This document shows, piece after piece, positions 31,973 through 56,084 of a DNA stretch of 56,084 nucleotides. How positions within the stretch are numbered: position 1 is the stretch's first letter; each line of letters starts with the position of its first letter. Source of the stretch: a bacterium. Lineage in GTDB: Bacteria; Bacteroidota; Ignavibacteria; UBA10030. Below the pieces are notes generated by a model. That model searched no databases and was not told where the DNA came from. It saw only the letters and a list, made by a program, of their open reading frames with translations. A program made the position numbers and the translations under genes. The DNA is taken from NCBI GenBank assembly GCA_043803945.1, contig JAZDJN010000102.1, forward strand, positions 1-56,084, written 5' to 3'.

Positions 31973-32872
31973 ATGTCCTTGCACGAAGCTGTTCGGAGTT
32001 TCCTTGAATATCTCGAAGTTGAGCGTAACTACTCTCGGCATACAATTCTGGCGTATCGCACTGATCTTGAACAATGTACCGCGTTTTTGCTCCAGCGAGG
32101 ACGATCATCCCTTTCTTCTATTACCAGACAAGACCTGCGTCAGTATATCAACTACCTCTTTTCTCATGGATTGAGCCGGCAATCGGCGGCACGGAAAATC
32201 ATTGCAATCCGGTCTTTCTTCCGGTTTGCCAAACGGCGTCAGTTGATTGAATCGAATCCTTCCAGTACTGTTTCAATCCCGAAACTCGAGAAGCGCTTAC
32301 CCTCATTTCTCGCAGAAGATTCGATCAATGCACTCTTCAATTCCATTGATACGTCGACACCGGAAGGAAAGCGAGAACAGGCAATCTTTGAATTGTTTTA
32401 TGGAACGGGGATTCGGTTGAGCGAACTTATCGGATTAAATATCGCTGATATCAATTTCTACAATCAAACAATCACAGTCTTGGGGAAAGGAGACAAACAG
32501 CGGACCGTGCCTTTCGGTAAACCGGCTGTTCAGGCGCTGCAACAATATCTTGCGCATCGCGCTGGTCACTCTGGCAAGCGATCCGACCATGATTCAACAG
32601 CAGTGTTTCTGATGGACTCCGGGAAACGTTTTTATCCGGAAGCGATACGACGCTTGGTAAAACGCCGTATCAGTGAGGTCTCCGAAATTGCAAAGACTTC
32701 ACCCCATGTGCTACGTCACACGTTCGCCACACATCTGCTTAATCGTGGGGCGGACCTGCGAGCTGTCAAGGAGTTGCTCGGACATGAAAGTTTATCAACG
32801 ACGCAGATCTATACTCATGTCTCGATAGAACAGTTGAAGAAAATCTACCGCCAAGCTCATCCAAAGGCATAG
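31973..32872 (+). CDS. xerC: Tyrosine recombinase XerC/XerD family
   Basis: YGTGIRLSEL, GKG.KQR, SPH.LRHTFATH and LLGH.SLSTTQIY; after topA. Confidence 0.88.
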   Translation: MSLHEAVRSFLEYLEVERNYSRHTILAYRTDLEQCTAFLLQRGRSSLSSITRQDLRQYINYLFSHGLSRQSAARKIIAIRSFFRFAKRRQLIESNPSSTVSIPKLEKRLPSFLAEDSINALFNSIDTSTPEGKREQAIFELFYGTGIRLSELIGLNIADINFYNQTITVLGKGDKQRTVPFGKPAVQALQQYLAHRAGHSGKRSDHDSTAVFLMDSGKRFYPEAIRRLVKRRISEVSEIAKTSPHVLRHTFATHLLNRGADLRAVKELLGHESLSTTQIYTHVSIEQLKKIYRQAHPKA

Positions 32873-54253: not shown

Positions 54254-54691
54254 CTACGAGAGATCATAACGCTGCAAGTAATCATCGATTTCCGAGTGAA
54301 ACAAATCGGGCAAAATACCGATAGTATCTTGGGACAAATGCACGTTTGTCCAATTGCCCTTCCTGTATTCAAACTTGTGCTCCTCAGGAATTTGACGAAG
54401 TGCGGGGTTATCATCCAAAAACCTTATGACAGGTACTGGCTGCTTCTGAGGATTCATCTCAATTGCACCCGCAAAGATCACTGGCCTGCTTCGAGCAACG
54501 TGTACGACGGAGAAATAGCGGGTACCCCGGTAAGCCAATGGAATGTCTGCATCGTTTCTTGTTCTGACGATGAGGTTTTGACGTGGGGTACCGACAGCGG
54601 CATCCAAGTGAGATACCAATGCTTGGAATAAATGAGGGGCAAGTTGATCGCCGTATACCCCCATAAGGTCTTGCATAGTGGAATTATCCAT
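54254..54691 (-). CDS. Hypothetical protein
   Basis: 145-aa ORF with AAGGAG RBS, co-oriented with neighbours. Confidence 0.7.
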   Translation of the reverse strand: MDNSTMQDLMGVYGDQLAPHLFQALVSHLDAAVGTPRQNLIVRTRNDADIPLAYRGTRYFSVVHVARSRPVIFAGAIEMNPQKQPVPVIRFLDDNPALRQIPEEHKFEYRKGNWTNVHLSQDTIGILPDLFHSEIDDYLQRYDLS

Positions 54692-54731
54692 AGGTCTCCT
54701 TCTGAAGAAATTGTAAATGAAGTCTTGATGG

Positions 54732-55253
54732 TCAATTCGATACGAGTTTGGCAGTGATTCCGTCTAAGACTTTTGCTTCGAGCTTGCCAGTGGATGAGCA
54801 GTTGACTTCTTTCTCGATAGCTCTGTCAGCCATAAAAGGTTGATAATTCCAGATGCCTCGAAAAGTGGTATTTACTTGTGCACTCGTTTGAGTTTCGGAT
54901 AGCTTCTTGACAAACACATTGAATTGAACGGTAAGCTTGAGTGTTTGGTAGTCATTGAGGCCACCAAGTTCACCACAATCAGCGTCGATCATGCTACCTT
55001 TTACCCATGATGGGCTGATCCAATATTCGGTGGCAATGAAGCCAGAACTCTTGTCCATATTCTTTATCGGTATGTTCTGTTCGGCGAAGTACTCGACGAC
55101 AGCAGACCAAACTTTATCCTGATCGCTCAGGAAAGTGCGCTTGTTCTCGAAACTATATTCCTTTGGGGGTTTAAAAGCCGAACACCCGAGCAAGGAAAAG
55201 ATCAAGAGAAAGAGTGCGATAAATGTGAGATTGGGTTGAAGGTGGTATTTCAT
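54732..55253 (-). CDS. Hypothetical outer-membrane lipoprotein
   Basis: LLGC lipobox; DKVW.AVV, DK.SGFIAT and C.STG.LE pattern; GGAG RBS. Confidence 0.75.
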   Translation of the reverse strand: MKYHLQPNLTFIALFLLIFSLLGCSAFKPPKEYSFENKRTFLSDQDKVWSAVVEYFAEQNIPIKNMDKSSGFIATEYWISPSWVKGSMIDADCGELGGLNDYQTLKLTVQFNVFVKKLSETQTSAQVNTTFRGIWNYQPFMADRAIEKEVNCSSTGKLEAKVLDGITAKLVSN

Positions 55254-55530
55254 TGTGCTTCTCCCGTGATATGATTGATGTGTGTTTTACAAAGTGCGTA
55301 CTGGCGTATAATATTGTAATTACTCAATTCTGTATTTCATTCATTCCAATCGGGCATCATGCATGAATTCATATATTATGCGTTTAGCACAAAAACCTCT
55401 TTCCTCGCTTCATAGCGAATCCAGAGGTTCTTCTTCACTTCCCGCCAACACGATCGACTAGATTCGCTTGGCAATATTTGTTGGGTTTAAATTACCATGC
55501 TTCAGGCAGTAAATCAACCTAGAAACAGTC

Positions 55531-55559
55531 TTGTTTTTTCAGCCTTATACATTTATATT
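55531..55559 (+). promoter_or_regulatory. Putative promoter of the tRNA gene
   Basis: TTGTTT-17 nt-TATATT about 50 nt upstream of the tRNA. Confidence 0.55.
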
Positions 55560-55560
55560 C

Positions 55561-55592
55561 AATCAGCAATCGGAAATCGTCAATCGACAATT
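55561..55592 (+). repeat. Short heptamer tandem repeat (AATCNNN)
   Basis: AATCAGC AATCGGA AATCGTC AATCGAC AATT. Confidence 0.6.
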
Positions 55593-55612
55593 ACATCGCT
55601 TAAACATGTTCC

Positions 55613-55686
55613 GGGCCCTTAGCTCAGTTGGTTAGAGCAGCAGACTCATAATCTGCGGGTCGCTGGTTCGAGCCCAGCAGGGCCCA
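55613..55686 (+). tRNA. tRNA-Ile2 (anticodon CAT, lysidine type); elongator Met not fully excluded; CCA not encoded
   Basis: Cloverleaf GGGCCCT/AGGGCCC, D-arm GCTC/GAGC, anticodon arm GCAGA-CTCATAA-TCTGC (CAT at 55647-55649), T-arm GCTGG-TTCGAGC-CCAGC; closely resembles the E. coli ileX sequence as recalled. Confidence 0.92.
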
Positions 55687-55688
55687 CA

Positions 55689-56084
55689 CTTTAATTATGG
55701 CGGGTCGCAGGTTCTGCGCCGACCTGTCCGCCGTCTTTTGGGCGGAAGGCGCATCAGCCTGTGGCTGAGAGCCCAGCAGGGCCCACACTTTAATTATGGC
55801 GGGTCGCTGGTTCTGCGCCGGCCTGTCCGCCGTTTTTTTGGCGGAAGGCGCATCAGCCTTTGGCTGAGAGCCCAGCAGGGCCCACACTTTAATTATGGCG
55901 GGTCACTGGTTCTGCGCCGACTTGTCCGCCGTCTTTTTGGCGGAAGGCGCATCAGCCTGTGGCTGAGAGCCCAGCAGGGCCCACACTTTAATTATGGCGG
56001 GTCGCAGGTTCTGCGCCGACCTGTCCGCCGTCTTTTGGGCGGAAGGCGCATCAGCCTGTGGCTGAGAGCCCAGCAGGGCCCACA
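55689..56084 (+). repeat. Tandem array of four 99-bp units, each containing the tRNA 3' portion interrupted in the T-loop by a 54-bp hairpin insert
   Basis: Units 55689-55787, 55788-55886, 55887-55985 and 55986-56084; units 1 and 4 identical; array reaches the window end. Confidence 0.95.

Follow-up and report, generated by a model that had tools for sequence, protein, structure and literature searches.

A tandem array of tRNA fragments split in the T-loop by a dispersed hairpin repeat in a genome of the Ignavibacteria

The tRNA gene and the array at the contig end

The window analyzed here is a stretch of 56,084 nt (contig C102, JAZDJN010000102.1) from a genome of the Ignavibacteria of 5.54 Mb in 118 contigs (G000). 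At its 3' end a tRNA gene is followed by a tandem array of partial copies of the same gene, each interrupted in the T-loop by a 54-nt insert. An earlier note, made from the sequence of the window alone, had described this arrangement and had offered three origins for it: a processed small-RNA array, a set of spare or decoy attachment (att) sites, or a mini-element that targets T-loops and was then amplified.

The only tRNA gene of the window was located by ARAGORN at 55613-55687 (+) with anticodon CAT, and the Rfam tRNA model matched 55613-55686 with 71.8 bits. ARAGORN assigned the gene to Met on the anticodon alone. Comparison of the four CAT tRNAs of the genome suggests that it is of the Ile2 type, by elimination, since the other three look like the initiator, the elongator Met and a degenerate copy of the window tRNA. 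A second, degenerate tRNA-Ile2-like gene, 86% identical to that of the window, lies at C4:44506-44581 on the minus strand; it was called tRNA-Met(CAT) by ARAGORN, its anticodon loop is altered and its 5' acceptor strand no longer pairs. When 55000-56084 was scanned against Rfam (cmscan, E-value <= 10), seven matches were returned and only the tRNA was above threshold; apart from one antisense plastid model, the others were chance matches. The Plastid-ycf2 5UTR model, which we guess may overlap plastid trnI(CAU), matched the antisense of the tRNA at 55613-55687 with 38.5 bits, below its threshold of 65.7 bits.

Tandem Repeats Finder reported an array with a period of 99, 4.2 copies, 95% matches and a score of 767 at 55670-56084. 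Each unit consists of an 11-nt linker, a copy of tRNA positions 42-56 (T5), the 54-nt insert and an exact copy of positions 57-76 (T3). In the gene, T5 occupies 55655-55669 (+) and comprises the end of the anticodon stem, the variable loop, the 5' strand of the T-stem and the TTC of the T-loop, and T3 occupies 55670-55688 (+) and comprises the GAGC of the T-loop, the 3' strand of the T-stem, the 3' acceptor strand, the discriminator A and one trailer base. The repeat search recovered five exact copies of the 19-nt T3 at a spacing of 99 nt, forming a direct repeat that brackets each unit, and five copies of the 15-nt T5, with 100% identity in unit 2 and 93% in units 1, 3 and 4. Unit 1 spans 55689-55787 (linker 55689-55699, T5 55700-55714, insert 55715-55768, T3 55769-55787), unit 2 spans 55788-55886 (insert 55814-55867), unit 3 spans 55887-55985 (insert 55913-55966) and unit 4 spans 55986-56084 (insert 56012-56065), all on the plus strand and the last ending at the contig end. 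Identity between units is 95-100%. Excision of the insert rejoins ...GGTTC with GAGCC..., which is the T-loop in the Rfam alignment, and in every unit the break is TTC^GA, between C56 and G57. The description in the earlier note was correct in every detail checked, namely the 11 + 15 + 54 + 19 nt composition of the unit, the exact T5 of unit 2 with one change in the others, and the break whose closure restores the T-arm.

The array runs into the contig end, so its copy number can only be given as at least four units. The final 131 nt of the window recur without a difference at the start of another contig of this assembly, C60, when that contig is read on its reverse strand. Beyond this overlap the array exits into approximately 190 bp of unique DNA, which is followed by a full-length degenerate tRNA-Ile2-like copy whose T-loop also contains the insert; this copy has a diverged 5' half and, beginning at the anticodon loop, the sequence of the gene. 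One further 99-bp unit follows, and then a flank with an ORF on the opposite strand. The whole locus comprises the tRNA, at least four units, a spacer, a split pseudo-tRNA and one unit. Unit 1 is identical to unit 4 and to the unit on C60.

The insert is a member of a modular family of hairpin repeats

The 99-mer matched 31 places in the genome, and those outside the array span the insert only. Short-word BLAST and reading of the flanks recovered dispersed full copies of the insert with covarying outer stems. As single-stranded DNA the insert is predicted to fold into two adjacent hairpins, H1 and H2, with -16.7 kcal/mol (z -3.63), and this pair is referred to below as E. In unit 1 the predicted H1 (55715-55753) has the outer stem TGCGCC (55715-55720) / GGCGCA (55748-55753), and its loop holds a module composed of CCTG and TCCGCC (55727-55732), an 8-nt loop and GGCGGA (55741-55746); the predicted H2 (55754-55768) reads TCAGCC tgt GGCTGA.

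The family consensus is TGCGCC ... GGCGCA for H1 and TCAGCC nnn GGCTGA for H2, and sister hairpins with the stems TGAGCC/GGCTCA, TCCGCC/GGCGGA and TAAGCC/GGCTTA were found. Throughout the family the two inner positions of the stems are variable and complementarity is always kept. The module CCTG TCCGCC ... GGCGGA, which lies inside the H1 loop in the array, stands between H1 and H2 elsewhere and also occurs solo in the genome; a fourth hairpin, CCTGCC...GGCAGG, can nest inside it. The nested form of H1 seen in the window is also present in locus L118. The minimal E has 30 nt, as against the 54 nt of the window insert. The H2 motif was found at 42 loci of the genome, and perfect hairpins of the form T-NN-RCC-n3-4-GGY-NN-A numbered 91, compared with 20 in the reversed-genome control.

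Mosaic repeats of approximately 160-330 bp at many contig ends of the same genome carry H1 and H2 in another context, between ..AACCAC and AAAGTTC.. (for example C26:99075-99568, C80:1-129, C1:10113-10288 and C75:20256-20432).

Split copies at other tRNA genes of the genome

Second copies of T5 or T3 were sought around all 47 tRNA genes of the genome, and all T3 ends were searched against it by BLAST. Close to approximately ten further tRNA genes there is a partial copy that hairpins interrupt at this same position. Downstream of tRNA-Arg(TCG), Arg(ACG), Asn(GTT), Val(CAC), Gly(CCC), Leu(TAA) and Ala(CGC), such copies were found at a distance of 40-200 bp, in the order T5, hairpins and T3, and across contig joins split copies adjoin Gln(TTG) and Glu(TTC), the latter with two copies 27 kb apart. 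The break is TTC^RA with the sole exception of Arg(ACG), which reads CTC. The inserts are differing pairs of the H family, that of Arg(TCG) being the unrelated CCTGCC hairpin. The search for T-loop-split copies of other tRNAs, which the earlier note had recommended, was thus positive in this genome and in its relatives, and at the same break.

The tRNA-Asn gene has an array of its own, with a 108-bp period and at least three units across contigs C29 and C51. At tRNA-Asp there are two partial copies in which part of the T-arm is replaced by a hairpin, and the split fragment found after tRNA-Thr(CGT) does not match that tRNA. The T-stem of the Ala fragment shows compensated changes relative to the gene (ATCGG/CCGAT against GGGAG/CTCCT), with the same acceptor end. 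One partial copy alone is unsplit. It is a fragment of tRNA-Met at C39:9177, and no other has an integrase gene as its neighbour (C39:9638-10135, approximately 460 bp away).

E-split tRNA copies in related genomes

The tRNA-Ile2 gene was found in 39 of 40 related genomes, none of which matches the query beyond position 76. A scan of 277 genomes of the order with a strict pattern (GTTC followed by H1 and H2) gave matches in four: G000, G033, G200 and G085. In G033, which belongs to another family, tRNA-Val(TAC) is followed by 7.0 copies of a 140-bp repeat (96%), the unit of which is made of the tRNA trailer, CTCGCAGGTTC, the 30-nt minimal E and GAATCCCGCAGCGTCCAC. In G200, from a third family, one split copy stands after a tRNA-His, separated from it by 48 nt. 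The single E copy of G085 (L058, C4:655857-655890) lies in a coding-looking stretch with no tRNA nearby.

An empty site was found in G041, a congener of G033, in which a terminator hairpin stands directly after tRNA-Val. The same terminator occurs in G033 after the last, decayed T3 (GAATCACACAGTAACAAT), indicating that the block of G033 sits inside the ancestral tRNA, at the T-loop. The working tRNA-Val of G033 now uses the T3 that arrived with the block.

Among loci the spacers vary freely in length (11 to 82 nt) and in sequence, and the distal copies are decayed in G033 and L111. Variable columns among the units number 18 in G000 and 19 in G033, mostly within one odd unit each, and are too few to test selection. 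We regard the window array as a recent example, ORF-less and confined to this lineage.

E in public genomes and metagenomes

Public contigs were searched with the pattern TTC + H1 (loop 3-33) + H2, which imposed the stems and the 5' TTC and left the 3' side free. The loci retrieved were 54 in one-genome-per-species contigs and 89 in metagenome contigs, 80 of the latter being fetched; viral contigs gave 0 matches to the pattern. According to the record titles the 54 genome loci, all from metagenome-assembled genomes (MAGs) whose labels may err, belong to Bacteroidota (23), Ignavibacteria(les) (3), Kryptoniota (2), Chlorobiaceae (2), Patescibacteria groups (10), Gammaproteobacteria (4) and Chloroflexi (1), with no phylum given for 9. 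L125 and L077 duplicate G033 and G200 and are not independent.

The genome loci contain 71 copies of E and the metagenome loci 104. Directly 3' of E, where nothing was imposed, RA was found in 67/71 and 98/104 copies (165/175), and GAA in 30/71 and 59/104. The H1 and H2 stems are the same in all 175 copies, as the pattern demands, and the triloops vary. One side is cut short in many copies. In 13 of the 71 genome copies the T-stem pairs completely around E, where shuffling of the partners gave 2.9 on average. An intact tRNA was present no further than 250 nt away at 26/54 genome loci and 48/80 metagenome loci. More than one E copy was present at 24 of the 134 loci (8/54 and 16/80), several of which are tandem arrays. 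Loci L169 and L219 are 95.6% alike over 1765 bp, yet their unit spacers are strongly different.

Two layouts were recognized. In type A, as in the window, an intact tRNA is followed by a spacer and by T5, E and T3; it was counted at 40 loci (12/54 and 28/80) that have an E copy downstream of a tRNA on the same strand and the T3 of that neighbour at >= 10/12 bases. In type B, tRNA positions 1-56 are followed by E, GAATC..., a spacer and an intact tRNA; 16 loci (3/54 and 13/80) have such an upstream E copy with the T5 of the neighbour. Both layouts occur together at 5 loci, and at L087+L126, L155 and L223 the intact tRNA is flanked on both sides. A single crossover of an E-split partial copy with the gene in place would be expected to yield both types.

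At the TTC^GA of a tRNA-Gly copy in L109 the hairpin pair is a different one. Copies of tRNA-Ser(CGA) in L103, L180 and L230 have E in the anticodon loop, at CTC^GAA, and in the non-tRNA cases E is centred in small palindromes, between ...TTC and GAA.... What these sites have in common is TC^GA(A) at a hairpin tip. Among the T-loop insertions, H1 precedes H2 in the tRNA sense at 52 loci and follows it at 8, 7 of the 8 being one tRNA-Arg(CCG) locus family.

Hairpin pairs were also seen in the D-loop of disrupted tRNA copies (L117, L078/L110 and L060 of G200), and in L076 a hairpin replaces the anticodon arm of a disrupted copy; several loops of dead tRNA copies have therefore been invaded, not the T-loop alone. 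In L184, L229 and L239 a 5' copy of tRNA-Ile(GAT) split by E lies 39 nt upstream of an intact tRNA-Ile(GAT)-tRNA-Ala(TGC) pair, which is the usual content of the ribosomal RNA operon spacer. A consequence for annotation is that a split copy can pass as a tRNA, as in L078, where the ARAGORN call overlaps E and is an artefact.

Transcription of the array

In an RNA metatranscriptome run (X1), mismatch-free contigs were found at 55565-55641, 55612-55699, 55670-55708, 55679-55798 and 55778-55874, and no contig was found on 54600-55559, the 960 bp upstream. The contig at 55565-55641 is preceded by adapter-like letters and GGG. These data agree with transcription that begins near 55565 and continues beyond the tRNA into two or more units, the evidence being contigs of a multi-copy array for which DNA carry-over is possible. 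No terminator-like site was detected in 55300-56084 on either strand, in line with the earlier note, which had seen no terminator between the tRNA and the array and had considered co-transcription likely; the error-free contigs bridging the two, with none over the 960 bp upstream, lend that view weak to moderate support. No joint skipping the insert was present in the X1 contigs, though contigs could miss one.

A weak candidate promoter (TTGTTT, 16 nt, TATATT), which is our own reading of the sequence, lies at 55533-55565 (+), with the RNA 5' end at 55565; a consensus promoter scan called no promoter on the plus strand. DNA runs X2 and X3 contained nothing beyond the tRNA or pieces with 90-95% identity, and tRNA-like pieces were all that RNA run X18 contained. 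Just 5' of the tRNA, at 55560-55591, the heptamer CAATCGG is repeated 4.6 times (80% matches) and overlaps the possible transcript start; a run of a similar motif precedes the orthologous tRNA in the relative G018 (L023).

Small GIY-YIG genes and other candidate enzymes

The ORFs within 450 nt of E at the 80 metagenome loci were surveyed (125 distinct ORFs). GIY-YIG (PF01541) was the only recurrent family of a mobile type, with 13/125 distinct ORFs, or 18/80 loci when identical proteins are counted, and no integrase, Y1 transposase or other transposase was found among the 125. The usual order is a disrupted copy with E, 10-25 nt, a small GIY-YIG ORF, 0-55 nt and an intact tRNA of the same kind; the alternative order is GIY-YIG, tRNA and E units. 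The E-linked proteins have approximately 80-120 aa and consist of the catalytic domain alone. In the genome of the window 5 of 13 small GIY-YIG ORFs adjoin a tRNA and its partial copy (Asp, Pro, Ser twice and Asn).

A general link between GIY-YIG genes and E was rejected, since only 2 of 28 GIY-YIG loci chosen regardless of E carry H hairpins, and the link is therefore confined to one clade. In a tree of 47 distinct domains (73 columns, modest resolution), 15 of the 22 E-adjacent rows fell in one clade of 17 (support 96/94). The E-adjacency labels required 7 changes on this tree against 16.0 when shuffled, and 0/500 shuffles were as low, in a comparison where kin share labels and the E-adjacent and E-blind sets were sampled differently. 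The clade takes in the E-adjacent paralogs of G277, G278 and G279 and 0/8 other paralogs of those genomes, and it also includes two genes of the genome of the window (C98:6286 and C22:45). We regard the link between E and this clade as a lead, short of proof.

The genomes G277, G278 and G280 (approximately 0.8-1.1 Mb) have 6-8 small GIY-YIG genes each, many of them no further than 100 nt from a tRNA gene. Two of these very small genomes have 3-6 Y1-transposase-like genes as well, and the E-holding G280, an incomplete genome, has no PF01797 match.

The genome of the window has 12 PF01797 matches to Y1-type genes, of the type of the transposases associated with repetitive extragenic palindromes (REP; RAYT). 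Examples are C31:48012, C56:3414, C85:25104, C72:16568 and C65:26971. Most are flanked by hairpin repeats of their own, and the genome therefore holds many separate REP-like systems; no H-type hairpin was found within 0.9-1.5 kb of any of the 12.

Proposed origin of the array and alternative explanations

We consider it rather probable that the array is selfish DNA and not a tRNA-related gene, that is, a partial tRNA copy split by E, tandemly amplified and passively transcribed. This corresponds to the third option of the earlier note, a mini-element that targets T-loops, and extends it, the insert being a member of a dispersed family and the break recurring at other tRNAs and in other phyla. 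The process would have started with a partial 3' copy of tRNA-Ile2 (approximately positions 42-76) downstream of the working gene. A mobile E would have entered the T-loop DNA of this copy exactly between C56 and G57, its target being the midpoint of TC^GA(A) within a DNA hairpin loop, such as the T-arm of any tRNA gene may offer. A cell in which E entered the sole working copy of a tRNA gene would die, so that E would persist only in copies with an intact gene next to them. Since each unit has flanking 19-nt T3 repeats and a strong hairpin, the T3-bracketed unit could have multiplied to the 99-bp array by replication slippage or unequal crossover between T3 copies, and the array would be transcribed along with the tRNA as a passenger. 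E may be moved in trans by the linked clade of small GIY-YIG nucleases.

A broader proposal is more tentative, and we would put it at about one chance in three: E and one GIY-YIG clade (approximately 80-120 aa) may together be a mobile system, hitherto undescribed, that homes into the tRNA genes of bacteria from different phyla, enters TC^GA in the T-loop or the CTCGAAA anticodon loop, spares the host by a second partial tRNA copy without splicing and sheds ORF-less mini-units that form arrays. Such a system would recognize its target in the form of a hairpin loop of DNA, and the nesting of hairpins in hairpins would follow from this. If an element that hits one fixed step of the T-loop is real, it would account for odd tRNA pseudogenes, partial copies and contig breaks beside tRNAs in MAGs of Bacteroidota/Ignavibacteria and Patescibacteria, would provide a natural case of DNA recognition of a hairpin loop, and would give a testable role to many orphan small GIY-YIG genes beside tRNAs.

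Several observations weigh against a selfish origin. The orientation bias (52 versus 8 loci, not independent) and the invariance of the stems across phyla fit a function at the RNA level equally well, and the T3 unchanged across all 7 units read, together with the presence of the array in an RNA library, leaves room for a function of the transcript. At tRNA-Ile2 the array is absent in relatives, all 16 loci read being without a downstream fragment or hairpin. No filled/empty pair was found for E alone in an unchanged fragment, the empty site of G041 concerning the whole block. As to the enzyme, a GIY-YIG gene or remnant was not found at the Ile2 locus (best tblastn E-value 0.13; C102 from 54000 and C60 from 17500 to their ends), and 26 of the 28 GIY-YIG loci chosen regardless of E are without H hairpins, several of the 28 being tRNA-adjacent. 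In addition, the data are mostly from MAGs, in which repeats assemble poorly and some phylum labels may be wrong.

The alternative that best withstands these data, still an unlikely one in our judgement, is a functional RNA array. It would be co-transcribed and cut to RNAs of approximately 99 nt, in which a T-arm-like three-way junction (the T-stem closing H1 and H2) and the tRNA 3' end would titrate a processing or modifying enzyme or act as a decoy for a T-loop nuclease. Such a function would agree with the RNA contigs over 55565-55874 and the contig-free 960 bp upstream, with the absence of a terminator between the tRNA and the array, with the invariant T3 of the 7 units, and with H1/H2 stems that are invariant in 175 copies from several phyla and have one orientation at 52/60 tRNA-linked loci. 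It is harder to reconcile with units that have no 5' acceptor strand, D arm or anticodon arm, no match to an Rfam family, spacers free in length and sequence, and distal copies that decay in G033 and L111. Moreover, E is also found in non-tRNA palindromes and in a coding-looking stretch, reversed copies exist, and unrelated hairpins occupy the same site at tRNA-Arg(TCG) of the window genome and in L109; contigs cannot reveal processing.

Plain local duplication, in which random slippage of the tRNA 3' end, the chance landing of a repeat and expansion would have produced the array without any site-specific process, seems to us quite improbable. The 19-nt direct repeats and the hairpin do favour slippage, the 95-100% identity of the units is that of a recent event, and no relative has the array at tRNA-Ile2. 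The insertion step is where this explanation is contradicted: the TTC^RA break recurs in 165/175 public E copies and at approximately ten other tRNAs of the genome, CTC^GAA is used in anticodon loops, T-stem pairing around E exceeds the shuffled expectation (13 versus 2.9), and the public loci are at different tRNAs and so are not one inherited locus. The earlier note would have settled for neutral slippage if no relative had comparable tRNA-linked units and no transcript were detected; the absence of such units holds for tRNA-Ile2 but not more widely, comparable units being present at tRNA-Val, tRNA-His and many others.

tRNA genes are classic landing sites of integrase-borne islands, and partial tRNA 3' copies are the usual mark of such islands. 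The units might therefore be attL/attR-type copies left over, or kept as spare sites, from repeated integration and excision, as the second option of the earlier note would have it. The two tRNA-Glu fragments 27 kb apart, the two tRNA-Asp fragments 6 kb apart and the unsplit tRNA-Met fragment approximately 460 bp from an integrase gene would be in keeping with this. At the array itself, Pfam searches found no integrase among the 7 ORFs within 6.5 kb upstream, and none of the 10 PF00589 matches of the genome is near the array or on C60, the nearest being 23 kb away. There is nothing between the 99-bp units, the loop in which a crossover by such recombinases would be expected is occupied by the hairpin, and 0 of the 125 ORFs near E were integrases. 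The earlier suggestion of att sites finds no support here, as no integrase is near the array or the other split copies and only the unsplit fragment adjoins one, and we give it marginally less credence than plain duplication. A tyrosine recombinase domain (PF00589, open frame of 301 aa) is encoded in the window at 32306-32824, 23 kb from the tRNA and unconnected with the array; its size suggests a protein of the Xer type.

An assembly artefact is very improbable: the array does lie at a contig end, where copy number is not measurable, but its units differ from each other at defined positions, its other end and exit flank are on C60 with an exact 131-nt overlap, RNA-run contigs are identical over 120 and 97 nt of units 1-2, and similar arrays exist in many other assemblies.

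A tRNA intron, either group I or of the archaeal bulge-helix-bulge type, was also considered and rejected, as the units are without tRNA positions 1 to approximately 41, the 54 nt have no Rfam intron match and no joint that skips the insert was seen in the contigs, which could miss one.

Comparison with known systems

In the literature searched, in which subscription journals are mostly outside coverage so that absence is unproven, we found no description of hairpin inserts in bacterial tRNA T-loops or of their link to GIY-YIG genes, and the earlier note likewise knew of no site-specific T-loop insertion. A tiny non-coding element that hits one fixed T-loop step in many tRNAs and phyla is absent from that literature.

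Tandem islands with repeated 3' gene ends are reportedly found at ssrA in Dehalococcoides. Group I introns in the T-loop of the tmRNA are described in a preprint (10.1101/2020.01.27.920355). The window array and its sister loci share with these systems the 3' gene ends repeated in direct order and the interruption of a bacterial T-loop; they differ in having no integrase, in units of 75-140 bp, in inserts of 30-54 nt, too small for a self-splicing intron, and in truncated copies. The repeats linked to tyrT of E. coli (RtT RNA) are also tandem units right after a tRNA, each ending in its last ~19 nt and co-transcribed with it. To our knowledge, however, the tyrT units contain neither the 5' strand of the T-stem nor a T-loop insert, and 55000-56084 gave no match to the RtT model of Rfam at E-value <= 10.

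Among palindromic repeats, REP sequences, bacterial interspersed mosaic elements (BIME) and REPINs are associated with RAYT (Y1) transposases, and further palindrome-associated elements derive from IS200/IS605. Like REP, BIME and REPIN, E is a small palindromic repeat in many copies, mosaic or nested, apparently with a conserved 5' base context and without target duplication. Unlike them, its hairpins have no GTAG-type head, and no cognate Y1 gene is flanked by H hairpins. Nor does E have in the genome a Y1 partner with matching ends, as would be expected of IS200/IS605-derived elements; RA lies 3' of E in 165/175 copies, the bases on either side of E are not visibly duplicated, the 5' TTC was a requirement of the search pattern, and the geometry is unlike that known for IS608.

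Free-standing GIY-YIG homing endonuclease genes reportedly include SegB of phage T4, located in a tRNA gene cluster, and a mobile GIY-YIG ORF with a duplicated gene end is said to be on record in Allomyces. The cassettes found here resemble such genes, and the mitochondrial ORFs with a replacement gene end, in the small GIY-YIG gene beside tRNAs and in the disrupted and intact copies that stand side by side, so that host function is kept by duplication and not by splicing. They differ in the small size of the E-linked proteins. The cassette layout is present at tRNA-Asn, Asp, Pro and Ser of the window genome and at 18/80 metagenome loci, and the array at the Ile2 locus is without it.

In form E comes close to the double-hairpin elements (DHEs) of Allomyces mitochondria and the repetitive hairpin elements (RHEs) of sponges, which are said to be short, G+C-rich, non-coding units of two stem-loops, dispersed, divided into subfamilies and thought to be mobile. 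E has the form of a DHE, a G+C-rich unit of 26-79 nt with two adjacent stem-loops and dispersed subfamilies, and both invade intergenic DNA and structured RNA genes as short hairpin pairs. The likeness drawn here is one of form, and E differs from the mitochondrial elements in its presence in bacteria of several phyla, its fixed dinucleotide step in a tRNA loop, its partial tRNA copies and its tandem arrays. Taken together, these comparisons place E among small mobile repeats of known kinds, with a fair chance that it represents a distinct system.

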